Positions 4,063-46,971 of a stretch of DNA of 64,000 nt are shown here, in pieces. The stretch comes from Escherichia phage EC100. Numbering within the stretch: the stretch's first letter is position 1; each line of letters starts with the position of its first letter. The DNA lies in the sequence record NC_105587.1; one strand, written 5' to 3'. The position numbers and the translations under genes were made by a program. The notes under the pieces were generated by a model, which ran no database searches, was not told the DNA's origin, and saw only the letters and a list, made by a program, of their open reading frames with translations.

Positions 4063-4581
4063 TTAGAAATTTAGCTTCATAGCAAGAAAATTTTTCAAGT
4101 TTTCGGTAGACATCTCATCCACATCTACAGGAGAAACAAATCCATTTAATTTTCTAGCAAATTTTTCACCCGCAGGATCGTTGTCCCCGACAGCTACCAA
4201 TTTAAAAGGTAATAATTTCAGTTGCTTTAATAAGGCTTTTCCTGGAGAAGAACCCAACATTGCCAGGGCTGGATAACCAGCGTTATGTAACGCAACTGCC
4301 TTAAATACAGATTCAGCAATCAATACTACTTTTTCATCTCCATTGAGAGTTTCTAGTCCCCATACACACTGTGTAGTAGAATAGGTAAAATATTTAGCTT
4401 CAAAGGGGCACTTACCATGCCCTTTTGGAGCAGAAGGATTATAAGTCTGATAGCCTCTCAACATCCCAGAGAAGTCATACAACGGGACTGTTAGCCATCC
4501 TTCTGGACTTAACCAGCAATGATATTTATCTGTATCAAATCCCCTAGATAAGAGGTGCTGTGTTAGCTCATCAACATTCAT
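4063..4581 (-). CDS. Toprim-domain protein (primase-like catalytic core without zinc ribbon)
   Basis: Toprim signature VVLIAESVFKA (Glu) ... LVAVGDNDPAG (DxD); start moved to the ATG at 4581, which has a GAGAGAGGAA ribosome-binding site. Confidence 0.5.
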   Translation of the reverse strand: MNVDELTQHLLSRGFDTDKYHCWLSPEGWLTVPLYDFSGMLRGYQTYNPSAPKGHGKCPFEAKYFTYSTTQCVWGLETLNGDEKVVLIAESVFKAVALHNAGYPALAMLGSSPGKALLKQLKLLPFKLVAVGDNDPAGEKFARKLNGFVSPVDVDEMSTENLKNFLAMKLNF

Positions 4582-6599: not shown

Positions 6600-7547
6600 T
6601 TATTTATTACGCATATCCATAATCATTTGGCCATCATAGCCAGTGCCAACCACAGTCTGCGGTACACCACCCTGATACTTCTGAGCACGAATCATTTCAA
6701 CTTCCAGTTGCTTCCAGCGAATCATCTCAGGAGTAATGGTACGTTGCAGTGCGGCGTTAGCTTCAGCTTCTTTCTTAGCTGCGTACAGTTTAGCATCTGC
6801 ATCACGTTCATTAGCAATAGCTTGGTTGTTGCGAGCTTCACGATCTGCTTCTGCTTGTTTAACTTTTTGCTGTGCTTCCTGTTCAACACGAGCTAATTCA
6901 GCTTTAGCAGCATTAACCTGTTCTTCACGAACTTTGGTATTCTGTACCTGTTCCATGATTACCGGTGGCAAAGTAATATCCTGAAGGAACACCTGCTTAA
7001 CTGTGTAACCATATGGGCGTGCATACTCTTCAACTTCCTGTTGAATTGCAGTTTGCAATTGAGCCTGAATTTTAGCATCAAACAAATCTTGTGCTTTAGG
7101 CACAGACTTACCAAACTCACGAATAGTAGACAATAATTTTTCAGTTACATATTTGTCTAACGCTTGATCCTGAGTACCTGCATTAATACGGTTAATCGGT
7201 GCCTTAGAACCATCAAATTGCAACATAACAGTCAAGTCAACAGTGGATTTAAACTTATCCTGACTAGGAACCTGAAGTTTATCTAATTTTACAGCAATAT
7301 CTTTTGTACTAAAAGTATCGAAAGATGCAAACGGGTTTACAAGATGGAAACCAGGTAATACTGGGTTAGGATCTACTTTACCCAGAAATGTTTGGGTTTT
7401 AACCGTACCATCAGAAACAATAGTATATGAATTAAAAGCTAGGATTAAACCTGCTAAACCAACTACAGCACCAATACCCCAACGTTTAATAGTACGAATT
7501 ACTTTCTGCTCAGAAGTCAGTTCTTTCATATTTTTAGTATTAAACAT
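6600..7547 (-). CDS. SPFH/band-7 (HflC/prohibitin-like) membrane protein
   Basis: N-terminal transmembrane helix (WGIGAVVGLAGLILAF), SPFH-like core, C-terminal Ala/Glu/Gln-rich coiled coil; ATG with AGGA ribosome-binding site. Confidence 0.65.
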   Translation of the reverse strand: MFNTKNMKELTSEQKVIRTIKRWGIGAVVGLAGLILAFNSYTIVSDGTVKTQTFLGKVDPNPVLPGFHLVNPFASFDTFSTKDIAVKLDKLQVPSQDKFKSTVDLTVMLQFDGSKAPINRINAGTQDQALDKYVTEKLLSTIREFGKSVPKAQDLFDAKIQAQLQTAIQQEVEEYARPYGYTVKQVFLQDITLPPVIMEQVQNTKVREEQVNAAKAELARVEQEAQQKVKQAEADREARNNQAIANERDADAKLYAAKKEAEANAALQRTITPEMIRWKQLEVEMIRAQKYQGGVPQTVVGTGYDGQMIMDMRNK

Positions 7548-8157: not shown

Positions 8158-8229
8158 TACCGACCGTAGGATTCGAACCTACATCTTCCACCAGTTACGG
8201 CTTGATAATACCAATTATACTAGGACGGC
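8158..8229 (-). tRNA. tRNA-like element (degenerate, possible pseudo-tRNA)
   Basis: T-arm GTAGG-TTCGAAT-CCTAC identical to the one in the 1271-1353 tRNA, acceptor stem with one mismatch, no clean anticodon stem, no CCA. Confidence 0.25.
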
Positions 8230-9470: not shown

Positions 9471-9788
9471 TTACTCCTGCCAATCATATTCAACACGATT
9501 GGGATTTTCTTTATACCCTAAGTCAAGCAAATCATTACGCATATTTTGCTTAGCTACTGGGTTCGAGGTTACTAGTACCACTTTCTTTGGTCTCTGCCCA
9601 AATTCTAAGAGTAAACGAAGAATTTGATAACCTTCCATACCATCTACAGCCAAGTCATTATCCATATAAACGAAGTGGCCTGTGGTATCAGTTTTATTCA
9701 GAAACTCTACAGCGGCTTCTGGGGTTCGAATGATAATGTCCATTCCGTGAAGATTACGCACATCATCAATCAAAATATGAAAAGTCAT
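9471..9788 (-). CDS. stand-alone CheY-like receiver (REC) domain protein
   Basis: Aligns by eye to CheY: ILIDD (acidic pair), YMDNDL..GMEGYQIL (phospho-acceptor Asp), VVLVTS (Thr), GYKENP (Lys); 105 aa. Confidence 0.5.
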   Translation of the reverse strand: MTFHILIDDVRNLHGMDIIIRTPEAAVEFLNKTDTTGHFVYMDNDLAVDGMEGYQILRLLLEFGQRPKKVVLVTSNPVAKQNMRNDLLDLGYKENPNRVEYDWQE

Positions 9789-11175: not shown

Positions 11176-11877
11176 TCAAATTTTCATTTTTTCGATCATA
11201 GCTGCAACACAATAGCTCTCAACTAAGGCATCAAATGCTGGGTCGTGCTTAACCGGATAGATCCCATAACGAATGGTGTCCATCTTCTCCATTTTAGCTT
11301 TTGCCCAGCTAATACCTTCAGCCTCTAGATCTTTGTAACTATAACCAGCTTGCATCCAGAGATTACGGAGAGATCGAACATTGCCCAAATTCCAGAATTT
11401 CCACGGAACTACCTCTTCATTGGTTCCAGCATGGAACGTGTTTGCAGAGTAGATAGTCATATCAAACTCTGGGCCATTGCCATAATACAAAGCATTTTCG
11501 CCTAGAGCCAACTCCATAATATTTTGAGCCATAGAGAAGGCAGCATAGTTTGAGCCGAGTTTATTAGTGCAATGATGTTTACCATTTTGGAAGGCAATCA
11601 GTTTTGGATTACGTCCCTTCATAGCTTCCATAATGTGGATAGCAGACGGGCTATTTTTAGCTTGATCCATCCAGAATGCTAGAGTAGATGCTGTAACTTT
11701 GGCACCAGAATTAAGCTGATCTTGTACATCCAAAGTAACAAATATTAGATCAGGGTCTTTATCAATTCCTTGCATAGCCACAAAAGCGAAAGAAGGCATT
11801 GCGATATGAGTAGTACCACAATCTCCTGGAGTTCCCAGAGATTCAATATCTAGCATACCAAATGGTTTTACTTTCAT
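11176..11877 (-). CDS. DEDDh-type 3'-5' exonuclease (DnaQ-like fold)
   Basis: Exo I motif MLDIESLG, Exo III motif YPVKHDPAFDA; AAAGGA ribosome-binding site. Confidence 0.6.
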   Translation of the reverse strand: MKVKPFGMLDIESLGTPGDCGTTHIAMPSFAFVAMQGIDKDPDLIFVTLDVQDQLNSGAKVTASTLAFWMDQAKNSPSAIHIMEAMKGRNPKLIAFQNGKHHCTNKLGSNYAAFSMAQNIMELALGENALYYGNGPEFDMTIYSANTFHAGTNEEVVPWKFWNLGNVRSLRNLWMQAGYSYKDLEAEGISWAKAKMEKMDTIRYGIYPVKHDPAFDALVESYCVAAMIEKMKI

Positions 11878-13054: not shown

Positions 13055-13504
13055 TTAATTTATTAACTGTAAGCTTCTTTTAATTTCAGACCTTACCTGC
13101 ATCAAAAGAACTCCCAAAGTATTATCCCCGATGCCTCGGCAAACACCCCAATATGTATCTCCCCAGGTATTTCCTTCAATCAAAGTTGCATTTTCTGTTG
13201 CTAACAGTTTATCTCTCAAATCAGGGAGTGCAAACTTTAACCGTAAAAGCTCTAGCATTACATCATCTTTTACCTTATCCCAGTCAGAGCGTAGAGTTAA
13301 TTTACGTCCTCTACGTTTAGCAACTCCTGCATTTAGGGAGCGTAGTACATGAGCTACATCATCTTTTTGGTCGGATTTCATAGCCTGAAAAGCATGTTCT
13401 ACAGTATCAGCATGCCATATTTCATTTAGATATTCGAAAGTAATTGGTGATAAATAAAAGTTAGATAAGAAACTATAAGCACCTTTAAATTCAGTAATCT
13501 TCAT
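13055..13504 (-). CDS. NADAR / YbiA-like domain protein
   Basis: Family motifs FLSNFY, EHAFQAMK, and C-terminal WGDTYWGVCRGIGDNTLGVLLMQVR. Confidence 0.65.
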   Translation of the reverse strand: MKITEFKGAYSFLSNFYLSPITFEYLNEIWHADTVEHAFQAMKSDQKDDVAHVLRSLNAGVAKRRGRKLTLRSDWDKVKDDVMLELLRLKFALPDLRDKLLATENATLIEGNTWGDTYWGVCRGIGDNTLGVLLMQVRSEIKRSLQLIN

Positions 13505-22930: not shown

Positions 22931-22962
22931 ATCAGCCAGGTTGCTAGTCGACCTGGCTTTTA
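22931..22962 (+). terminator. intrinsic terminator after nrdD
   Basis: AGCCAGGT-TGCTAGTCG-ACCTGGCT hairpin followed by TTTATTTT. Confidence 0.7.
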
Positions 22963-22997: not shown

Positions 22998-23025
22998 AGA
23001 TTTATAAATTTGAGAGGAGAAAGAT

Positions 23026-23238
23026 ATGAGGATTCATAAGGTAGATAAAGATCGTATCTATTTTGTTATGGACTCAGGAGCATATGGTTCCATTCTCTGT
23101 GAGGATATAACTAAATTATGTTTAGTAAATACTTGGATGGACGAAGAGAAGATTGATCCTAGGGCGGGATTGTGCTTATCTGAGCCCGCCCTTTCTATTG
23201 CTAATGCAGAAATTGAAATGTTTGAGGAACAAGAATGA
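23026..23238 (+). CDS. hypothetical protein (70 aa)
   Basis: GAGAGGAG ribosome-binding site downstream of a T5-class promoter. Confidence 0.4.
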   Translation: MRIHKVDKDRIYFVMDSGAYGSILCEDITKLCLVNTWMDEEKIDPRAGLCLSEPALSIANAEIEMFEEQE

Positions 23239-23438
23239 AAAACGTAAAACATCTTAAATATCGCTTAATTTACAACGGACGTATGGAAACAGAAGATCTG
23301 GCCCAACTAGCTATTAATTCTAATGAGGTTACAGTGCGTGCACTGGCAATTGAAAAGTTGCGTGCTTCTTATGAAAATCGTGTTATGGAACTAGAGGAGA
23401 AACTTTATGGACTTCTTGAATCAGAATCTAAAAAGTAA
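23235..23438 (+). CDS. hypothetical protein (67 aa)
   Basis: ATGA overlap with the upstream stop (translational coupling). Confidence 0.4.
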   Translation: MKNVKHLKYRLIYNGRMETEDLAQLAINSNEVTVRALAIEKLRASYENRVMELEEKLYGLLESESKK

Positions 23439-23601
23439 TCCAGAAAACATGCTTATTGAGCAGTGGAACTTTGGTTATAATGCTGGTGTAGCTACTTGTA
23501 TTGCTAGATTGGATATGCTTATTAAACAAGAAAAGGTACGCCCGGAGGAAGCAATTTTACTCCGAAATATTATCGAAGGATTTAAGCAAGGAATCGTATA
23601 G
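23407..23601 (+). CDS. hypothetical protein (64 aa)
   Basis: GGAGAA ribosome-binding site; overlaps the preceding ORF. Confidence 0.4.
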   Translation: MDFLNQNLKSNPENMLIEQWNFGYNAGVATCIARLDMLIKQEKVRPEEAILLRNIIEGFKQGIV

Positions 23602-24437
23602 TGCGTAGATTAATTATTATTAGCGGTGCGGGTTTGAGTGTTGAAAGTGGTGTACGAGCTTTTCGTACTGATACTGCTAGTGGTAAAGCATTGTGGGATG
23701 ATTATGACTTAGAAGAGGTATGTAATATTCATGCCTTTCGTGGTAATTTTTATCATAAAACTCATATGTTTTACAACAAGCGTCGTGAAGAGCTAAAAAC
23801 TGTTGAACCCAATCTTGCACACTTGCGTATTGGTGAATGGTATAAGAAATATCCGGGTCAAGTAGTAAACTTGACTACCAACGTTGATGACCTTATTGAG
23901 CGTGCTGGCGTTCCACATAGTGACATTCTGCACATTCATGGGTATTTAAAAGAGGTTGTTGTAGCTGATAGCTACAATAGTAGCAATAAACGAATTATTG
24001 ATATTGGGTATAGCTCTATTGACCCAGATGATTATAAATGGGTTAAACCTAATGTAATCTTCTTCGGGGAACATGCTCCAGCATATGCAGAAATGTACAA
24101 TGTTTTTGATGGTATTACCAGTCAAGATATGATCATTGTGGTTGGTTGCTCTAATCAAGTAATTAACTTCTACTGGGAATTATTCCCTGTTCTTAATCTG
24201 ACTTCTGCAAAACTTATGGTAGTTAACTACTATGATAGTGCTCTAGCGGTGGAACCAGGCTATCAAGGTATGACTCGTAGTGAGATGTACCAATTGGAAG
24301 AACGCGGTATCCCTTACTGGAGTAAAGGTGCGGTAGATGCTTTCAGTGACCCTGGTTTTATTGCTCGTGTAGAAGCCCATTTAGAGGGTAGACCTTATGT
24401 GCCGGAGAGAATGGGGAACAAATATGTCCATAGTTAA
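23601..24437 (+). CDS. Sir2-family (sirtuin/CobB-like) NAD-dependent enzyme, lacking the zinc-binding Cys cluster
   Basis: GAGLSVESGVRAFR (NAD-binding), TTNVDDL, catalytic HIHG, NVIFFGE; no CxxC pairs between HG and FGE; GTG start overlapping the upstream stop. Confidence 0.75.
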   Translation: MRRLIIISGAGLSVESGVRAFRTDTASGKALWDDYDLEEVCNIHAFRGNFYHKTHMFYNKRREELKTVEPNLAHLRIGEWYKKYPGQVVNLTTNVDDLIERAGVPHSDILHIHGYLKEVVVADSYNSSNKRIIDIGYSSIDPDDYKWVKPNVIFFGEHAPAYAEMYNVFDGITSQDMIIVVGCSNQVINFYWELFPVLNLTSAKLMVVNYYDSALAVEPGYQGMTRSEMYQLEERGIPYWSKGAVDAFSDPGFIARVEAHLEGRPYVPERMGNKYVHS

Positions 24438-24606
24438 ATCTGTGTATACACATCCCGATGATATATTTGTATGGGCGGATGGTAGTTGGTGTTATCGATG
24501 TGAGCTATGGGAAATGGACTATAAATCCGATGACTATGGTGTCATATATGTTGATACGGCTGAGTATGATACGTTCTTAGAAAGGAACAAAAATGGAAAT
24601 AAGTAA
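24424..24606 (+). CDS. hypothetical small protein
   Basis: Track ORF 24397..24606; ATG at 24424 chosen; overlaps the Sir2 3' end. Confidence 0.3.
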   Translation: MSIVKSVYTHPDDIFVWADGSWCYRCELWEMDYKSDDYGVIYVDTAEYDTFLERNKNGNK

Positions 24607-25099
24607 TACTCCAATTATTTTTCTAGACATTGATGGGGTGCTTAATTCGAGCATCTCCCACCATCATGCACCTGATGATGAAAAGATTTTCTTTGGAAGT
24701 GACTGGGTTTTTAAACCACTTCTCAAGGCTTTTCAGGACTTTATTCGTCCTTCTCCAATAATGATTGTTGGGGTATCTTCATGGTTCTCTGTCAAGAATG
24801 AGATGGAGAACGTTCAGATTATGGCCGGATTAGATCTTATCGATCGTTTTCTTGGTACAACGGATTTTACTGGTGGTGGGCTATCTAGAGGTAATTCTGT
24901 TCTTCGCTTCGTTGAAAAGCATAAGCTCAAACATTGGTGTGTGCTGGATGACGCTGGTGCTATGATGTATCAGTATCCAACGGTTATAGTCAACGGTAGA
25001 ACTGGAATAAATCTTCAAGATTTAAGAGCTGTTAGCTATATGTTAGAATTTAGTCCAGATCTTGAAATGTGTAAAGCCCTACAACAATTTAAGGTGTAA
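24593..25099 (+). CDS. HAD-superfamily phosphatase-like protein (capless)
   Basis: HAD motif I FLDIDGVLN, motif II VGVSSW, Lys region KHKLKH, motif IV VLDDAG; 168 aa. Confidence 0.55.
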   Translation: MEISNTPIIFLDIDGVLNSSISHHHAPDDEKIFFGSDWVFKPLLKAFQDFIRPSPIMIVGVSSWFSVKNEMENVQIMAGLDLIDRFLGTTDFTGGGLSRGNSVLRFVEKHKLKHWCVLDDAGAMMYQYPTVIVNGRTGINLQDLRAVSYMLEFSPDLEMCKALQQFKV

Positions 25100-25101
25100 A
25101 T

Positions 25102-25530
25102 ATGTTCAATAATGTATTCTCTAAAGAAGCTAACCCAATATTGGTTAATTTTTGGCGTACTCTTCCAGACAACCTGTACAATGAGGCTATTAATGCTCTG
25201 AAAATATGGTGTGAGAATAATGAAATCTCCTTTGCTTTTAAAGGTGAGATTGAAGAAGCTCCCTGTATTGGTTTAATTGTGCAGGTAGAGGATGGCTTTG
25301 AAGAGATTGTCGGCTGGAAAGAGTTAGATGAAATGGGCTTGGTTTTTGCGTTAAACTATAAGCTGTTTATGCCTAATAAGCACCGTATTGTTGTTAACTA
25401 TAAAACCAGTGAATCTCCGGGCTTTCAAGTTAATGAACATTACGGTTGGTCTTACTCACCGGAAGAAGTAAATGATGGTATACAAAAACTTCGTCGTTTT
25501 GGTTATCAAATTCCGGGTTTAACCGCCTAA
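25102..25530 (+). CDS. hypothetical protein, paralog A of a tandem pair
   Basis: Shares SFAF..PCIG, W.EL..MGL..ALN..LF.P and W.Y.P...L.R.G...PGL blocks with the next ORF. Confidence 0.5.
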   Translation: MFNNVFSKEANPILVNFWRTLPDNLYNEAINALKIWCENNEISFAFKGEIEEAPCIGLIVQVEDGFEEIVGWKELDEMGLVFALNYKLFMPNKHRIVVNYKTSESPGFQVNEHYGWSYSPEEVNDGIQKLRRFGYQIPGLTA

Positions 25531-25540
25531 AGGGGGCACA

Positions 25541-25933
25541 ATGGAACAAGTATATTGGCGTCAGATTGATCCTAGTTTGGTGAAGCGTGCGGAGAAGCTG
25601 CTACAACGTTGGTTGGGGGTAAGACAAGCCTCCTTCACTTTTCCGGAGCAGCAAATAGACGATCCCTGTGTTGGTGTTTTCCTATCAGGCTACGCTAGGG
25701 AATGGGAATTGGATTGGAATGAATTGTCTGCTATGGGTTTAATTGTTGCACTAAATTTCTCTTTGTTCCATCCACGTGGTTTGGCCATATGTCGTGTGCC
25801 TGATGACGGTTGTTCGCCCCATCTTTTACAGGTGGAAGATGATATTTGGGAGTACACTCCAGATATTCTCAAAGAAGCCAAAGAACAATTAAACCGTGTT
25901 GGGATCTATGTTCCGGGGCTAAATGATAAATGA
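25541..25933 (+). CDS. hypothetical protein, paralog B of a tandem pair
   Basis: Collinear similarity to 25102..25530; AAGGGGG ribosome-binding site. Confidence 0.5.
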   Translation: MEQVYWRQIDPSLVKRAEKLLQRWLGVRQASFTFPEQQIDDPCVGVFLSGYAREWELDWNELSAMGLIVALNFSLFHPRGLAICRVPDDGCSPHLLQVEDDIWEYTPDILKEAKEQLNRVGIYVPGLNDK

Positions 25934-26550
25934 TTTTTATTAGTTGACCTCTGATTACCGAGTCATTTTGGCTCGGTTTTCTCTATGCTCAAAGACACTG
26001 ATAGCACCATCCGGAAAATTTTACTTGCAGGATGCCCAAAATCTTGATATAATATTTATATTGAATTGAGAGACATTAGTAAAAATTGATTTTGCTAATT
26101 TTTCTTGTTTACAATCCGCGATACGGAACAGTTAGGCTGCCCCATTAAGGGTTGTTTTAACTATTACTAGTGTTTATATTGCATTAGTTAATCTTCAATT
26201 AAGTGATCTGTGTACCCTGAATTCGGAAAGGTAAATCCAAACCGTGCATATTTAGCTCGTTATATAGGCAGAGTTTTATATGGGGGTGCGAACGAAAAGA
26301 GCAGCGAATGGCGGCACGTACAGTAGTCACCTACCAATAGGATAGTGAGGACAAATAGAATCGGCTTAGCGGCCAATGACCTAGGTTCTATTCTGTATAT
26401 GAGCGAAGAGAGCACAGCACTGAGATATGATAACTTATTCATATTGTTTGATGATAATTGATGTTTACGTAAATAGTAGTAATAGTTGTTCTATTCTTTC
26501 TGAATAGTCCTAAAGAAAAGATTTCGATTAACCAACACAGGAGTATTGTT

Positions 26551-28389
26551 GTGTTTTCTATCCTTCAAGGTCACGCCGGATTTTCTCGTGATTTAGCAAC
26601 AGGTATTTGGCGAGAAATCAAAGCGGAAGATTATACCTTTGCCAAGCGATTCTCGAAAGAGCATCCAGAAGGTAAACCAGCTTCTATGCCCTTCAAATTT
26701 GATGTAATAGAAGAGCACGACCCACAAAGCCTTGCCGAAATGTTACCCCTTATGAGACGTTTAACGTCTGACCCTCATATCGTTGCGGTACGAGGTCGAT
26801 GTCTTGCACCTAAAAATAATGTGCGACGTAAGAAAGGTAACTTTAATGTATCTAATCCTAGTAATATTATTGCTATGGACGTGGATGGTATCCTAGATAC
26901 CGGTGGGTACGACAAATTTAATCTTGTTGGTATGGCCCGCCACATTATTAAGATGTTGAATAGTATTAGTGAGGATATGTTTCCTCTTGATGCAGGCTTT
27001 ATAGCTCATGCATCATCTTCGGCTGGGCTAAAACCAGGTATCCGAATGCACTTAATGCTAGAATCTAACGTCAAGGTAACTCAGGGTCAGCTAAAGTTCT
27101 TATTTACATCTATCAACGATAGTAGTAAGCAAAAATTTGGTTTTGATATTGCCGACCTAGCTTATTATTCATCTGTCCAGCTCCACTATTTTGCCGACCC
27201 CTTATTTAGCGATGGTATTGTTGATCCGTTTAAAGCGGAGAGTAAGCCACGTCTGGTGTATGTTAAAGGTTCGAAAGTAAATTTGCCCAATAATCTAGTT
27301 GACTATGAAACAACTAGAGGGGAGTTTAAGGAAGAGTTTTATTCTTTACTTGATCAAATTAAAGGCAAAAAGATTGCTTCTGATAAAGTAGAAGAAACCA
27401 TCAGCGAGTTAGAAGAGGCTGATGATGGAGTGTATTTGCGTATTATCCCCAAACTATACCATAGAGCATTAGAGGATGGTGTTGATTTTGCATGGCTAGA
27501 ACGTGAGATTAAACCAGCTTTATCTGAATATATTGCAACTAAAGATAACAGTCGTAATATTCAAGATTACTTTAATAACGGTCGTAAGCAGGCTCTCAAA
27601 GCGTTTGTTAATAATTCTAAACGTGAGATTCCATTAAATCTGAAAGGTGTTCCACTTAAGAAATTAGAAGTGGATTCTCCACCAGAAGTTCCATACCTGA
27701 AGATTAATATTGTGCCCCCAAAAGGCCATATAACATTTGTTAAGGCAAGTCTTGGTACGGGTAAAACTACGGCAGTAACTAAATGGCTGGACGCAGGTGT
27801 TCTTCCGGGCAACTTTTTAGCAGTTACAAATACTAGAGCACTGGTATCTTCAAATGCCAAGAAATTTAGTGCAGGACAATACGATAAGTCTGTAGATATG
27901 CTCAACTTTAAGCGTGGAGCTATTGATCGTATGTCCACAACTATTCACTCTTTGCATAAGTTCAAAAGTTTTATTGGGCAAATAGACACCATTTTTATTG
28001 ATGAATGTGACGCTGTAATGAATGACCTATTATTCGCCCCTGTTGTTAAACAACGTCGTGAGTGTATTCAAGTTCTACGTGACATCCTCATGACAGCTAA
28101 GACTGTAATCTTATCCGATGGTGATATTAGTGCTGAGACGATTGAAGCATATGGTTCTCTAATTGATTTTGATAAACCGGTTGCATTTTATAATCATCAC
28201 CGTAAAATGCTGTCAAAAGCTCATGCTTATGAGTTCCCTGATGAGTCCAGTATTTGGGTTGCACTTCAGACTTCTCTAGAGATGGGTGAGAAATCTATTC
28301 TAGTATCTGATTGTGGCCCGGATGAGCTAAATGAGAAAGGTATGGCACTGCGTCGTAATACGGGTGCGTTAGTTAAGGAAATCCATTGA
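26551..28389 (+). CDS. P-loop NTPase / helicase-like protein, N-terminal part (ends at an in-frame TGA)
   Basis: GTG start with AGGAG ribosome-binding site; Walker A SLGTGKTT, Walker B IFIDECDAV; the frame stays open beyond TGA 28387-28389. Confidence 0.6.
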   Translation: MFSILQGHAGFSRDLATGIWREIKAEDYTFAKRFSKEHPEGKPASMPFKFDVIEEHDPQSLAEMLPLMRRLTSDPHIVAVRGRCLAPKNNVRRKKGNFNVSNPSNIIAMDVDGILDTGGYDKFNLVGMARHIIKMLNSISEDMFPLDAGFIAHASSSAGLKPGIRMHLMLESNVKVTQGQLKFLFTSINDSSKQKFGFDIADLAYYSSVQLHYFADPLFSDGIVDPFKAESKPRLVYVKGSKVNLPNNLVDYETTRGEFKEEFYSLLDQIKGKKIASDKVEETISELEEADDGVYLRIIPKLYHRALEDGVDFAWLEREIKPALSEYIATKDNSRNIQDYFNNGRKQALKAFVNNSKREIPLNLKGVPLKKLEVDSPPEVPYLKINIVPPKGHITFVKASLGTGKTTAVTKWLDAGVLPGNFLAVTNTRALVSSNAKKFSAGQYDKSVDMLNFKRGAIDRMSTTIHSLHKFKSFIGQIDTIFIDECDAVMNDLLFAPVVKQRRECIQVLRDILMTAKTVILSDGDISAETIEAYGSLIDFDKPVAFYNHHRKMLSKAHAYEFPDESSIWVALQTSLEMGEKSILVSDCGPDELNEKGMALRRNTGALVKEIH

Positions 28390-28404
28390 AACTCTACCTC
28401 AGAT

Positions 28405-29340
28405 GTGGATATTCGACGTATTCTGGATTACACAACTAATGAACTAATTGATCAACAAATTGATTGCTTATTATGTAGTCCATCCGTAACGAGTGGTGTT
28501 GACTTTAACTATTTTGATAACGTATTTGTGATTACTAGAACTAGTAATCAAGCGCCAAACATGCGTTTCCAAGCAATCAGGCGCGACCGTGGTGCTCAGA
28601 ATATCTATTATTTTATTGATAAATCCACTAGTGGATTCTCCGCAGGTTCTGAACAATATAATATTGATGAGGGTTGGCTGGAGTTAGCACAGCAATTATA
28701 TGCACGTCGCAGGGAGCTGGAATCTAGGAACTATACTAGTACTTTACGTTATTACTTGCTTGATCAGGGTGCAACTATTGATATTTTCAGTGAAAGCTGG
28801 GGAACTATTGAAGGTGCTGGTAAAGAGTACACAGAAGAGCGAATCAAAGCTATTCTGCACTCAACTCCTGATTATTGTGCTCCACGTCATGCGGATGCGT
28901 ATGAAGCTAAGCTACTTCTTGTTCGCTATTATCATCTCGAGTCTATTAAAGATGTAACAGTTGAGCATGTTGAACAATATATAAAAGATAAACCGAATGA
29001 TCGAGCTGCATTCTTCCATAAGATGCACGAGATGTTCTGGGAAGATATTAAGAAGTGTTCAAATGTGACCATTAAACCATTCATAGAGGCTCTGAAAGGT
29101 AAGAAGAAAGATTTCTTCCTTAAAACCGGTCAGAGTGCTAACCCAAAATATGCTAGAATGTATCTTGGCATGATGGGTATTGGTAAGGATATGAACACGG
29201 AGAATATCGTAGACTGGTACAGAACCTACTGTAAAATCGAGTGTATGCCAATTCCTTATAAATTCATGACTGACGAGGAAAAACATATGCACGATGAAGC
29301 AATGTCAGAGCTAGGTGCTAGAAATGACAGTGAAGAATAA
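28405..29340 (+). CDS. helicase-like protein, C-terminal continuation (same frame as 26551..28389)
   Basis: Same reading frame as the upstream ORF, five codons after its TGA; begins with helicase-like block LLCSPSVTSGVDFN. Confidence 0.5.
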   Translation: MDIRRILDYTTNELIDQQIDCLLCSPSVTSGVDFNYFDNVFVITRTSNQAPNMRFQAIRRDRGAQNIYYFIDKSTSGFSAGSEQYNIDEGWLELAQQLYARRRELESRNYTSTLRYYLLDQGATIDIFSESWGTIEGAGKEYTEERIKAILHSTPDYCAPRHADAYEAKLLLVRYYHLESIKDVTVEHVEQYIKDKPNDRAAFFHKMHEMFWEDIKKCSNVTIKPFIEALKGKKKDFFLKTGQSANPKYARMYLGMMGIGKDMNTENIVDWYRTYCKIECMPIPYKFMTDEEKHMHDEAMSELGARNDSEE

Positions 29341-31881: not shown

Positions 31882-32853
31882 ATGACCAATGTAAAAGAAT
31901 TTATTAAACGCTGTCAAGAAGCATATTATCAAGGCATGTCTTTAATCTCTGATGAAGAATATGATCGCCTGGTAAAACGCTTCCCGTTAGAGGAAGAGAT
32001 CGGGCCTAAGGGTGATATTCCACACCTATATCGTATGTATTCTTTACAGAAAGTTTATTATAACCGTGGGGATAAACCACCATTTAATCCTTTAGGTCAG
32101 GTAGAAACTGATAAGTTAGATGGTTGTGCAATTTCTCTGCTATATATTAACGGTGAATTTGTTCAAGCATTAACCCGTGGTAATGGTATTCTGGGAAATG
32201 ATGTAACAAGCAACGTAAGATTGCTGAACATTCCTAAAAAGATTTCCCAAAAAGTACCTACTCAAATCACTGGTGAAGTTCTAATTACAAAAGAAGTAGA
32301 AAATAAACGTAACTTTGCCTCTGGTGCTATTAACCTCAAAGATAGTGATGCTTTCGTACAACGCATTGGAGAAGGCGGTTTAATCTTTGTTGCTTACGGT
32401 ATCCAATGTTCTGCTGAATCTGTAGGTATTACAGAAGCATATTTAAAAGATATGCTTTGGCTAGAGAAGGAGAACTTCTTAACAGTTGTTAATGTGCGTT
32501 CCTTTTTTAAATGGATTCCTACGGACGGTAAAGTTGTTCGTATTAATGACAATAACAAATTCTTCCGTGAAGGCTGGACTAATAAATTCCCTCGTGGAGC
32601 ATTCGCCATTAAAGAGGATGAAGAAGGCGAAATTACAACTCTTACTAAAGTTGAATGGCAGGTAGGGGCTTCTGGTAAAGTAACTCCAGTTGGTTATTTC
32701 GAACCGGTAATTATTGATGATGCTACAATTGTTAAAGCGACTCTTAATAACGTTGATTATATTAACTCTCTTGATCTAGAGATCGGTTGCCAGATTCGAG
32801 TGATTCGTGCTGGTGGTGTAATCCCGTGCATAGTAGAGCGAGTATACGATTAA
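31882..32853 (+). CDS. NAD-dependent DNA ligase, N-terminal adenylation/OB part (split gene)
   Basis: LigA-type adenylation block KLDGCAISLLYINGEFVQALTRGNG; own T5-class promoter upstream. Confidence 0.8.
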   Translation: MTNVKEFIKRCQEAYYQGMSLISDEEYDRLVKRFPLEEEIGPKGDIPHLYRMYSLQKVYYNRGDKPPFNPLGQVETDKLDGCAISLLYINGEFVQALTRGNGILGNDVTSNVRLLNIPKKISQKVPTQITGEVLITKEVENKRNFASGAINLKDSDAFVQRIGEGGLIFVAYGIQCSAESVGITEAYLKDMLWLEKENFLTVVNVRSFFKWIPTDGKVVRINDNNKFFREGWTNKFPRGAFAIKEDEEGEITTLTKVEWQVGASGKVTPVGYFEPVIIDDATIVKATLNNVDYINSLDLEIGCQIRVIRAGGVIPCIVERVYD

Positions 32854-33055: not shown

Positions 33056-33835
33056 ATGAAAATCGAAATTCCAACACAATGTCCCTCTTGTGGTTCTAAG
33101 CTAGATCTTGTCAACGGACAATTATTCTGTCGTAATAAGTCCAACTGTCCAGCGCAATCAAGTAAGTTAATTGAGAACTTCTGTTCAAAAATGAAGTTAA
33201 AGGGCTTTGGCCCAAAAACTATTGAGAAGCTGGAGCTGACGAAGATTTCAGAACTATTTTACCTAACCGAAGAAGATTTGGTTAGAGCCGTGGGTAGCAA
33301 GGTTGCCGCTAAGTTAATTAGCGAATTAAATACTAAAGTTCGCGGAGACATTGACTTTGGTTCAGTTCTCGGTTCTTTAGGAATCCCTCTAATTGGAGAG
33401 GTTGCAGCAAAGAAATTGTCCCAAAATTGCACCAGTTTTCAAGATGTGAAGGCTGACGGCAAGGCTGGAGAAAACTATAAAGCCTGGCTAAATTCCCCAC
33501 AAGGCAAGGATGTTATCGAATTACCGTGGAAATTCACAACTGGTATTAAAGGTGCTAAAGCTGAGGTCATCATTACTGATGGTCTAGTAGCCCAGCCAAA
33601 TGGAATCGCGGTGTGTATTACCGGGTCTTTGCAAGATTTTGCAAATCGAACGGATGCAACAAACTATTTAGAAGGTCTAGGATATACGGTTAAGAAATCC
33701 GTTACCAAAGACGTCAAATACCTAATCTGTGAGGATGAATCTAAGCGTTCTTCCTCATCTTATAAGAAAGCCGAAACGAATGGGATAGAAATCCTGTCGA
33801 TTAAAGAACTATTGGAGAAAAATAATAATGTCTAA
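33056..33835 (+). CDS. NAD-dependent DNA ligase, C-terminal zinc finger/HhH/BRCT part (split gene)
   Basis: Zinc finger CPSCGS...C...C, helix-hairpin-helix region, BRCT-like C-terminus; AGGAAG ribosome-binding site and own promoter. Confidence 0.75.
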   Translation: MKIEIPTQCPSCGSKLDLVNGQLFCRNKSNCPAQSSKLIENFCSKMKLKGFGPKTIEKLELTKISELFYLTEEDLVRAVGSKVAAKLISELNTKVRGDIDFGSVLGSLGIPLIGEVAAKKLSQNCTSFQDVKADGKAGENYKAWLNSPQGKDVIELPWKFTTGIKGAKAEVIITDGLVAQPNGIAVCITGSLQDFANRTDATNYLEGLGYTVKKSVTKDVKYLICEDESKRSSSSYKKAETNGIEILSIKELLEKNNNV

Positions 33836-45613: not shown

Positions 45614-46096
45614 ATGGCCGTAGATAGTAGAGAGAAAGGTAAGCGTGGTGAATATCAGGTAAGAGATATTCTACGTGAGCGTACAGGTCTTGAGTGGGAA
45701 CGTGTTCCTGGCTCTGGTGCTTTTGGCCAGAGCCACGGATTGAAGGGTGACATCTACCTTCCACCACAAAGCGGACACATTAGTAAATACTGCTTCGAAG
45801 TTAAGTGGTATAAAGATGATAATATATCAAGTAATTTATTTAATGTTGGTGAATCCACTCTAGAGAAGTGGTGGCAGCAGTGCTCACGTGAAGGCGAGCA
45901 GATGAACTCCAAACCTGCATTAATATTCAAAAAAGACAGAGGACAGTGGTTAATAGCTTTGGATAGCTCAGACCCGATGGTTGACAACTTAATGAGTCGT
46001 ACCCATATGGTGTTAAATAAGAAAGGCATGGAAATCGTAATCGGTTTATTTGAGCCGTGGCTACATAATGCATCTGTTGAGGACTTAATTAAATAA
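45614..46096 (+). CDS. putative PD-(D/E)xK family nuclease
   Basis: Candidate catalytic D...EVK arrangement (GDIYL...CFEVKW); 160 aa. Confidence 0.45.
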   Translation: MAVDSREKGKRGEYQVRDILRERTGLEWERVPGSGAFGQSHGLKGDIYLPPQSGHISKYCFEVKWYKDDNISSNLFNVGESTLEKWWQQCSREGEQMNSKPALIFKKDRGQWLIALDSSDPMVDNLMSRTHMVLNKKGMEIVIGLFEPWLHNASVEDLIK

Positions 46097-46971
46097 TGAG
46101 CAAATCCTGGGGAAAATTTATTGAAGAAGAGGAAGCTGAAATGGCTTCCCGTCGTAACCTAATGATTGTCGATGGAACTAACTTAGGCTTTCGCTTCAAA
46201 CATAACAACAGTAAAAAACCATTTGCCTCAAGTTATGTTTCAACTATTCAATCTTTAGCAAAATCCTACTCCGCAAGAACTACGATTGTTCTAGGTGATA
46301 AGGGGAAATCTGTATTTCGTCTAGAACATCTACCAGAGTATAAAGGTAATCGTGATGAAAAATACTCACAACGTACAGAGGAAGAGAAAGCACTGGATGA
46401 ACAGTTCTTTGAGTACCTGCGTGATGCTTTCGAGTTGTGTGAAACCACATTCCCAACTTTTACCATTCGTGGTGTAGAAGCTGATGATATGGCAGCTTAT
46501 ATTGTTAAGCTCATCGGGCATCTTTATGATCACGTTTGGTTGATTTCTACCGATGGTGACTGGGATACTTTATTAACGGATAAAGTTTCCCGATTTTCTT
46601 TTACTACACGTCGTGAGTATCATCTTCGTGATATGTATGAACATCATAATGTTGATGATGTTGAGCAGTTTATTTCCCTGAAAGCAATTATGGGAGATCT
46701 AGGGGATAATATCCGTGGTGTTGAAGGTATTGGGGCAAAACGCGGGTATAACATTATTCGTGAATTCGGTAACGTTCTGGATATTATTGATCAGCTTCCA
46801 CTACCCGGAAAACAGAAATATATACAGAATTTAAATGCTTCGGAAGAATTGCTTTACCGAAACCTAATTCTGGTTGATTTACCTACCTACTGTGTGGATG
46901 CTATTGCTGCTGTAGGTCAAGACGTATTAGATAAGTTTACAAAAGATATTTTGGAGATTGCAGAACAATGA
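46096..46971 (+). CDS. D15: flap endonuclease / 5'-3' exonuclease (T5 D15-like)
   Basis: 291 aa; N-terminal LMIVDGTNLGFRF typical of the 5' nuclease family; precedes dut as in T5. Confidence 0.9.
   Translation: MSKSWGKFIEEEEAEMASRRNLMIVDGTNLGFRFKHNNSKKPFASSYVSTIQSLAKSYSARTTIVLGDKGKSVFRLEHLPEYKGNRDEKYSQRTEEEKALDEQFFEYLRDAFELCETTFPTFTIRGVEADDMAAYIVKLIGHLYDHVWLISTDGDWDTLLTDKVSRFSFTTRREYHLRDMYEHHNVDDVEQFISLKAIMGDLGDNIRGVEGIGAKRGYNIIREFGNVLDIIDQLPLPGKQKYIQNLNASEELLYRNLILVDLPTYCVDAIAAVGQDVLDKFTKDILEIAEQ

Follow-up and report, generated by a model that had tools for sequence, protein, structure and literature searches.

A 64,000-nucleotide stretch of the Escherichia phage EC100 genome (NC_105587.1; hereafter the window) contains an accessory early unit of T5-like phages whose two enzymes, a zinc-less sirtuin (23601–24437) and a small HAD-fold phosphatase (24593–25099), belong together. 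The model that is tentatively favoured here, at a probability somewhat short of even, is that the unit is an NAD+-consuming accessory module that would handle terminal RNA phosphates or ADP-ribose by-products.

The sirtuin–HAD neighbourhood is already annotated and has been published with a mechanistic prediction. T5 records have called the sirtuin gene Sir2-like since the first genome sequences of about 2005, and the KVP40/phiSt2 sirtuin has been modelled, with the absence of zinc ligands noted and T5 listed among the carriers (Skliros et al., 2016; PMC5107563). The sirtuin and a 'Swiss-army-knife' (SAK) HAD in T5-like phages were described as a predicted NAD-dependent RNA-repair system in section 3.7.3 of Iyer, Burroughs, Anantharaman and Aravind (2022; PMC9503650), in which the sirtuin is proposed to remove 2′-phosphates from RNA in a KptA-like manner. 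That system is type 3 of the phage sirtuin-centred predicted RNA-repair systems given there, with Escherichia phage SP15 as the prototype. In the window, a phage-clade sirtuin lies beside a SAK-type HAD in a T5-like phage; the phage group, the two genes and the neighbourhood are the same, and the window copy is a member of type 3. The type-3 description in that section is purely computational. Sections 3.3.2, 3.7.1 and 3.7.3 of the same paper are silent on the DUF7415 gene pair that follows the HAD gene, on inversion of the gene order and on natural deletions, as well as on the distant cREC (cyclic-phosphate processing receiver) gene of T5-like phages and on HAD_SAK_2 genes in operons resembling the NAD+-rebuilding system NARP1. 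The present analysis adds an adjacency that withstands inversion, independent gene losses, natural mutants, NARP1-like contexts, and the cREC and NADAR genes of the same genome.

Organization of the Early Unit

Over positions 23000–26500, 526 phage records were matched by megablast, with 100% identity to Escherichia phages EC104, EC105, EC122 and EC142 and 95.5% identity to T5. The window corresponds to positions 32001–96000 of EC122 and belongs to Tequintavirus (Demerecviridae); this nucleotide match to a lytic T5-like phage agrees with the first-pass annotation, made from the window sequence alone, which had taken the phage to be lytic.

The sirtuin, HAD and DUF7415 genes belong to one early unit of seven or eight open reading frames (ORFs), all on the forward strand and some with overlaps; a single early transcription unit is indicated because two intrinsic terminators bracket these ORFs and an early promoter is annotated at the homologous T5 site. 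The upstream terminator (22934–22958; 10-bp stem with six GC pairs and a T-run) follows nrdD, where T5 annotation has both a terminator and the early promoter, and the downstream terminator (25957–25977; 9-bp stem and T-run) coincides with a T5 terminator upstream of the origin-binding/helicase gene; both were located by a pattern scan of the window. The unit begins with three small ORFs (23026–23238, 23235–23438 and 23407–23601; phrog_20147, phrog_5236 and phrog_5827), whose presence varies across T5-like phages. These are followed by the sirtuin gene, which encodes 278 amino acids from a GTG start (PF02146, E 9e-25) and corresponds to T5.102 (labelled Sir2 or 'cobB'), and by a 60-codon ORF that overlaps both the sirtuin and HAD genes (24424–24606; phrog_5116, E 2e-30), at a site occupied by two small ORFs in T5 (T5.103 and T5.104) and in Epseptimavirus. 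The HAD_SAK_2 phosphatase (168 amino acids; PF18143, E 2.9e-20; T5.105 homologue) and two DUF7415 proteins of 142 and 130 amino acids (25102–25530, PF24187 E 3e-33, T5.106 homologue; 25541–25933, PF24187, T5.107 homologue) complete the unit. The first-pass annotation had placed a sirtuin, an HAD-like phosphatase and a tandem paralogue pair at 23601–25933; all of these stand, and the 60-codon ORF and the three small upstream ORFs had been overlooked.

Conservation, Loss and Allele Exchange

With the sirtuin alignment, 59 IMG/VR loci were recovered, and their neighbours were mapped by tblastn and HMM searches. All 34 T5-like loci (listed as L012–L034, L042, L047, L049, L052, L053, L061, L063 and L064) have the order nrdD, small ORFs, sirtuin and, further downstream, the origin-binding gene. 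The sirtuin, the HAD and both DUF7415 genes are present together in 28 of the 34 (L012–L034, L047, L049, L052 and L053; the four-gene status of L016 comes from tblastn only). L042 has the HAD gene and one DUF7415 gene only, and the Sugarlandvirus-like loci (L061, L063, L064 and Roth49) have the sirtuin and DUF7415 without the HAD. In two distant T5-like loci reached via HAD homologues (L074 and L077), the order is HAD, small ORF, sirtuin, without DUF7415, and L077 keeps the HAD–sirtuin pair without nrdD. The sirtuin is the constant element, its adjacency to the HAD outlives inversion of the gene order, and the HAD and DUF7415 genes have each been lost independently. The first-pass annotation had tied its proposed module to co-conservation of the neighbouring genes across related phages, and the sirtuin–HAD pairing is conserved in this way even where the order is inverted.

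Natural mutants show that the sirtuin and the HAD are dispensable for growth, and dispensability of the Sir2 protein was among the signs that the first-pass annotation had named as counting against its module. In phage DT57C (L007, KM979354.1, 46493–46765), sirtuin residues of about 165–212 are fused to HAD residues of about 134–168, so that both enzymes are destroyed, and both DUF7415 genes remain intact beside the fusion remnant. Phage SelmaRatti (MZ501103.1) has a similar partial HAD match beneath a 'Sir2-like' gene and probably has lost both enzymes, like DT57C. Such dispensability fits an accessory or counter-defence function.

The DUF7415 proteins are separable from the enzymes. They score 114.2 and 108.3 bits against PF24187 (cut-off 27), and the tandem small ORFs are true paralogues, as the first-pass annotation had it, with 31% identity (E 2e-19) and two DUF7415 repeats each. 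Their assignment to a Sir2 module does not hold, however: the pair is absent from some T5-like phages that have the sirtuin and HAD, and is kept in DT57C. The DUF7415 proteins are co-transcribed with the enzymes yet functionally separable from them. An obligatory partnership of DUF7415 with the sirtuin was considered and rejected, given this absence and the location of DUF7415 genes elsewhere in T4-like phages. Single-repeat DUF7415 proteins are encoded directly after RNA ligase 1 in Aeh1 (L004, 4995–5228) and between nrdD and nrdG in the Jiaodavirus KpV477 (L005, 3995–4213).

Between Tequintavirus (the window) and Epseptimavirus (L047, L049, L052 and L053), identity is 89–97% for the flanking genes (nrdD, HAD and origin-binding) and only 52% for the sirtuin. 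By this comparison the sirtuin allele has evidently been exchanged at a fixed locus, and the swap suggests diversifying pressure on the gene.

The Sirtuin

The sirtuin scores 88.1 bits against PF02146 (Pfam cut-off 24). The NAD-binding and catalytic blocks of CobB-type sirtuins that the first-pass annotation quoted are found at residues 9–13 (GAGLS), 92 (TTNVDD), 111 (HIHG) and 154 (FFGE). Its observation that the zinc-ribbon cysteines are missing also stands: the only cysteines are C41 and C183, with none between H113 and E157, precisely the stretch into which the zinc cysteines of E. coli CobB fall in a phmmer alignment. Among 46 clade members of 55–96% identity, this insert contains 0–2 cysteines and never four, so that loss of the zinc site is a clade-wide trait and not decay. 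In the same 46 proteins Y58, R61, N94, D96, H113, G114, F154, F155 and E157 are invariant and G156 of the FFGE loop is not, and the Gln of the TQNID block is replaced by an invariant Thr93 (TTNVD). All 46 are acidic, with a median isoelectric point of 5.2.

In the AlphaFold2 prediction (pLDDT 88.4, pTM 0.87), the small domain keeps its three-stranded sheet (strands 114–122, 131–134 and 147–152) despite the loss of zinc, and the top Foldseek structures are CobB (1s5p; TM-score 0.85, target-normalised), Sir2Af1 and SIRT5. The GAGxS loop, YxxR motif, catalytic His and FGE loop are shared with CobB and SIRT5, Y58-x-x-R61 being aligned with FYNARR of CobB; in both enzymes this YxxR pair is the binding site of the acyl carboxylate. 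The window sirtuin differs from these enzymes in being only about 25% identical to them, in lacking the zinc cysteines, in having TTNVD for TQNID, and in belonging to a phage-only clade with another gene context. In a bacterial and archaeal genome scan with one genome per species, a single close relative was found, on a phage-like contig, and the clade is essentially phage-only. The protein scores 89.7 bits against NF040867, the NCBIfam CobB equivalog, where the cut-off is 320. The CobB-type affinity proposed in the first-pass annotation is thus retained, by sequence and fold, though below the equivalog cut-off. These data support the prediction of a zinc-less NAD+-using sirtuin, nearest to CobB/SIRT5, with its active-site residues intact.

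A strong rival to the RNA-end or ADP-ribose model follows from the same data, namely a conventional role of the sirtuin as an NAD+-dependent deacylase of protein lysines, probably desuccinylase-like as are CobB and SIRT5, with remodelling of host or phage protein acylation early in infection and with the HAD as an unrelated neighbour. This explanation, somewhat unlikely in our estimate, accounts well for CobB, SIRT5 and Sir2Af1 as the nearest relatives in sequence and fold, for the invariance of YxxR, the catalytic His and F154/F155/E157, and for the conservative match of the CobB pocket residues A76 and I131 by C41 and V95; the acidic isoelectric point is compatible with a protein substrate, and modelling of the KVP40-type protein led to the same view (Skliros et al., 2016; PMC5107563). 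It sits less well with a score so far under the CobB equivalog cut-off, with a clade confined to phages and with the replacement of the TQNID Gln by an invariant Thr. In three different gene contexts, by the neighbour mapping here and by Iyer et al. (PMC9503650), the sirtuin is paired with phosphate or cyclic-phosphate enzymes and RNA ligase, and not with protein-modification genes.

The lack of a zinc ribbon is also shared with the Sir2 folds of defence NADases (ThsA, DSR1/2 and SIR2-HerA), and background passages in PMC9503650 and PMC10973363 attribute NADase activity to many bacterial Sir2 domains that lack zinc. The window protein might by this likeness drain host NAD+ for shut-off or phage exclusion, which we judge very improbable. 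No PADLOC defence-Sir2 family matched the sirtuin at E ≤ 0.01, and the protein is a single domain, with no HerA, SLOG or TIR neighbour seen at the locus and no sensor or partner domain. Its core is of class III and not of the ThsA or DSR type, and its relatives adjoin NAD+-rebuilding genes. NAD+ depletion would, in addition, harm the phage itself, because its own DNA ligase is NAD+-dependent; this enzyme is split on the forward strand into an adenylation/OB part (31882–32853, PF01653) and an HhH/BRCT part (33056–33835) separated by a gap of about 200 bp. A defence-type Sir2 NADase was rejected on the basis of the unmatched PADLOC models, the class III fold and the NAD-dependent ligase of this lytic phage.

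The HAD Phosphatase

The HAD protein scores 73.5 bits against PF18143 (cut-off 27.5). Across 15 homologues of 37–95% identity, the blocks LDIDGVLN, SSWF and DD are invariant, as are G95, G96, R99 and G100 of the GGGxxRG block (G94 nearly so), and the invariant catalytic positions are D12/D14 (motif I), S62/S63, R99 and D119/D120, with R99 assigned to motif III by position only. All four HAD motifs noted in the first-pass annotation (DxD, S, R and DD) are therefore conserved, and the length of 168 amino acids fits a capless (C0) architecture. The sequence matched no solved structure at E ≤ 1. In an exhaustive profile search, HAD_SAK_2 proteins were mainly stand-alone, and the multidomain relatives were tandem repeats and one Metallophos fusion. 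The profile phrog_18062 ('Sir2', 92 positions) matches the C-terminal residues 77–168 of the HAD together with a short sirtuin stretch, and this overlap may lie behind the RefSeq label 'Sir2 (NAD-dependent deacetylase)' on T5.105-type HAD genes.

Relatives in Predicted RNA-Repair and NAD+ Contexts

In rV5- and Mydovirus-like phages, sirtuins 57–63% identical to the window copy are found in operons of RNA ligase (RNA_lig_T4_1; RnlA), cREC and sirtuin genes, with a divergent kinase (Pnk) and a calcineurin-type phosphoesterase alongside; in rV5-like phages, the cREC gene is directly upstream of the orthologous sirtuin. In nine rV5/Mydovirus-like loci, a pair of Adps-like and Namat-like genes lies 1.7–6.6 kb from the sirtuin. 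This pair has the NARP1 architecture (10.1101/2024.02.11.579819), and its Prs-like member shares about 40% identity with proteins of Felixounavirus, the group of the characterised phage Bas63. A T4-like contig of a metagenome-assembled genome (L081, JBOFGC010000083.1, 3664–10669) has the order NADAR, 240-codon ORF, NamPT, sirtuin, EndoVII, NrdD and NrdG, so that NADAR and nicotinamide salvage are clustered with the phage sirtuin. In another T4-like locus (L068), a NamPT-like match is about 1.6 kb from the sirtuin, with NrdD about 1.3 kb away on the opposite side. By tblastn and HMM neighbour mapping, no rV5-type RNA ligase, Pnk or Metallophos gene was found in the T5-like loci. Adps and Namat genes were likewise not found in those loci, and next to HAD homologues they were found only in three contigs.

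These contigs are Serratia phage ChuuTotoro (L073/L079, ON287369.1, 37735–39502) and two metagenomic contigs (L075 and L076), in which HAD homologues of 36–42% identity, 46–74% identical among themselves, lie directly upstream of Prs-like and NAPRTase-like genes. NARP1-AP, described in a preprint (Osterman et al., 2026; 10.64898/2026.01.28.702374), consists of Adps, Namat and the Macro-domain ADP-ribose-1″-phosphate phosphatase Adpp, and thus likewise has a phosphatase gene inside a Prs-like and NamPT-like operon. It differs in that the published phosphatase is a Macro domain, the preprint making no mention of an HAD, and in that the window has neither Adps nor Namat. The HAD might accordingly act alone as a small-molecule ADP-ribose-phosphate phosphatase, an HAD-fold analogue of Adpp for ADP-ribose-1″-phosphate from RES-type host NADases, with a link to the sirtuin only in that both touch NAD+ products. 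This explanation, which is rather unlikely, draws on the position of the HAD homologues in ChuuTotoro, L075 and L076, on the lack of a sirtuin within 20 kb of the HAD in ChuuTotoro, and on the known recruitment of an ADP-ribose-1″-phosphate phosphatase by NARP1 operons (10.64898/2026.01.28.702374). Yet the association comprises three contigs of two or three lineages, RNA-repair proteins were the basis for the definition of the HAD_SAK_2 family, and a fusion with a calcineurin-type phosphoesterase is seen in one relative. Capless HADs usually act on macromolecular ends, which also counts against it. The window, moreover, contains no NARP1 genes with which the phage itself could rebuild NAD+ from ADP-ribose.

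Several of these contexts include nucleotide-metabolism genes. The unit lies directly after nrdD, opposite phoH/nrdAB/frd/td; an HAD homologue follows td in Aeh1, in Jiaodavirus a DUF7415 gene separates nrdD from nrdG, and the sirtuin is near NrdD in L068 and L081. The HAD and DUF7415 genes might then be part of a nucleotide-metabolism cluster (nrdD, nrdAB, td and frd) and have no NAD role; the HAD could be a nucleotidase, for instance, and the DUF7415 proteins could be accessory to NrdD. Such a role is hardly probable, given that L077 retains HAD and sirtuin in the absence of nrdD, that the Vequintavirinae HAD homologue is in a NARP1-like operon away from nrd genes, that the Aeh1 DUF7415 gene follows RNA ligase 1, and that T5 has a dedicated dNMP phosphatase, dmp.

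Possible ADP-Ribose-Linked Genes Elsewhere in the Window

A cREC gene (9471–9788, reverse strand; T5.084 homologue; PF20274, E 3.8e-15), annotated merely as hypothetical, lies 14 kb from the sirtuin gene, unlike its adjacent position in rV5-like phages; it is a possible functional partner of the sirtuin. A NADAR-domain gene (13055–13504, reverse strand; PF08719, E 8.9e-22) is present in EC122-type phages at a position where T5 annotates no gene (T5 45973–46412). The first-pass annotation had taken NADAR for a second ADP-ribose-linked function in the genome. Its domain is confirmed, and the protein may be an ADP-ribose-processing partner, but the gene is a variable accessory one, without an annotated counterpart in T5. 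Among the candidate window ORFs scanned, there was no match to NARP3 (PnuC and NadR).

A Model for the Sirtuin–HAD Pair

According to the tentatively favoured model of an NAD+-consuming module, NAD+ would serve the sirtuin as the donor of ADP-ribose for an acceptor that bears negative charge. The 2′- or terminal phosphate of cleaved tRNA or other RNA is the preferred candidate, as in Tpt1/KptA, and the YxxR motif would be the binding site for the anionic group of this acceptor. Nicotinamide would be released, and the catalytic His would activate the 2″-OH of the ribose to yield ADP-ribose-1″,2″-cyclic phosphate; transfer and release of the cyclic phosphate would mirror the two steps of sirtuin deacylation. 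The phage cREC protein could then open the cyclic phosphate to ADP-ribose-1″-phosphate, and the HAD could strip the remaining phosphate from the RNA end or convert ADP-ribose-1″-phosphate to ADP-ribose. In larger phages, the NARP1-like pair would rebuild NAD+ from ADP-ribose and nicotinamide, alongside RNA ligase, kinase and cREC, and the T5 version would be a trimmed set of this cassette. The module would probably serve to counteract host defences that act through tRNA cleavage or against the NAD+ pool.

The proposed likeness to Tpt1/KptA comprises NAD+-dependent ADP-ribosyl transfer to a phosphate and attack by the 2″-OH to give ADP-ribose-1″,2″-cyclic phosphate. In the tRNA splicing of fungi and plants, Tpt1 accompanies a ligase, a kinase and a cyclic phosphodiesterase, and the relatives of the sirtuin take the corresponding slot. 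Tpt1/KptA differs in having the ART superfamily fold, which is unrelated to that of sirtuins, and the T5-like phages lack the ligase and kinase.

The model draws on the intact class-III-like active site, the phage-only clade, the conserved pairing with a phosphatase, and relatives beside genes for cyclic-phosphate and phosphate processing, ligation and rebuilding of NAD+. It also fits published results, because ADP-ribose-cyclic phosphate is a NARP1 side product (10.1101/2024.02.11.579819) and a Macro-domain ADP-ribose-1″-phosphate phosphatase is a proven NARP1 add-on. The NAD/ADP-ribose handling module of the first-pass annotation is in part borne out, by the NARP1-like, NamPT, NADAR and cREC contexts of the relatives and by the sirtuin–HAD pairing, whereas the DUF7415 pair is untied and NADAR is variable.

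Several points weigh against the model. To our knowledge, no class III sirtuin has been characterised as anything other than a protein deacylase, and the window sirtuin has conservative residues at the acyl-pocket positions. Typical RNA-binding enzymes are not acidic, unlike the proteins of this clade. The neighbours of the Phapecoctavirus and Vibrio phage sirtuin copies are uninformative, and nothing linked to NAD was found among the multidomain HAD_SAK_2 relatives in the exhaustive profile search. Given the synteny of phage early regions, some of the signal from gene neighbourhoods may reflect inheritance and not selection. A complete repair pathway is missing, for neither an RNA ligase nor a polynucleotide kinase was seen in the window or in T5 over its first 50 kb. 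In the literature searched, no experimental work on a T5-type phage sirtuin or on DUF7415 was found.

A bolder form of the model, which we consider improbable, would make the sirtuin the first with a nucleic-acid phosphate as acceptor (a Tpt1 analogue) and HAD_SAK_2 a second class of ADP-ribose-phosphate phosphatase, distinct from the Macro domains; with cREC, these enzymes would return the by-products of sirtuin, RES-type and NARP1 reactions to ADP-ribose and close an NAD+ cycle against defences that cleave tRNA or target NAD+.

Additional Features of the Window

The origin-binding/helicase gene downstream of the unit (26551–29340; T5.108 homologue) has an in-frame TGA at 28387–28389 (forward strand), which divides it into ORFs of 612 and 311 codons. 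This codon is TCA (Ser) in all 28 related loci compared, and the EC122 record annotates one coding sequence through the stop; the TGA may be leaky as an opal codon, the split may be tolerated, or a sequencing error may be common to EC104, EC105, EC122 and EC142. The window encodes many tRNAs. A tRNA-like element (8158–8229, reverse strand) reaches 35.5 bits with the Rfam tRNA model (gathering threshold 29), is not called by ARAGORN, and has an aberrant anticodon arm; it is labelled 'tRNA-OTHER' in EC122, and T5 has the stable RNA 'RNAX' at the same place. Its anticodon loop does not read UCA, and the element was rejected as an opal suppressor of the in-frame TGA. Further early genes, all on the reverse strand, encode a Toprim-domain protein (4063–4581), an SPFH/Band-7 protein (6600–7547) and an Rv2179c-like 3′–5′ exoribonuclease (11176–11877), the last labelled 'metallopeptidase' in EC122.

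Implications for Phage Biology

About a thousand phage genomes carry the sirtuin clade. The HAD_SAK_2 genes inside NARP1-like operons provide a fresh lead on the conflict between phage and host over NAD+. If the sirtuin does take part in the removal of RNA phosphates with NAD+, then sirtuin chemistry would reach beyond protein deacylation, and these phages would possess an unrecognised route of RNA repair.

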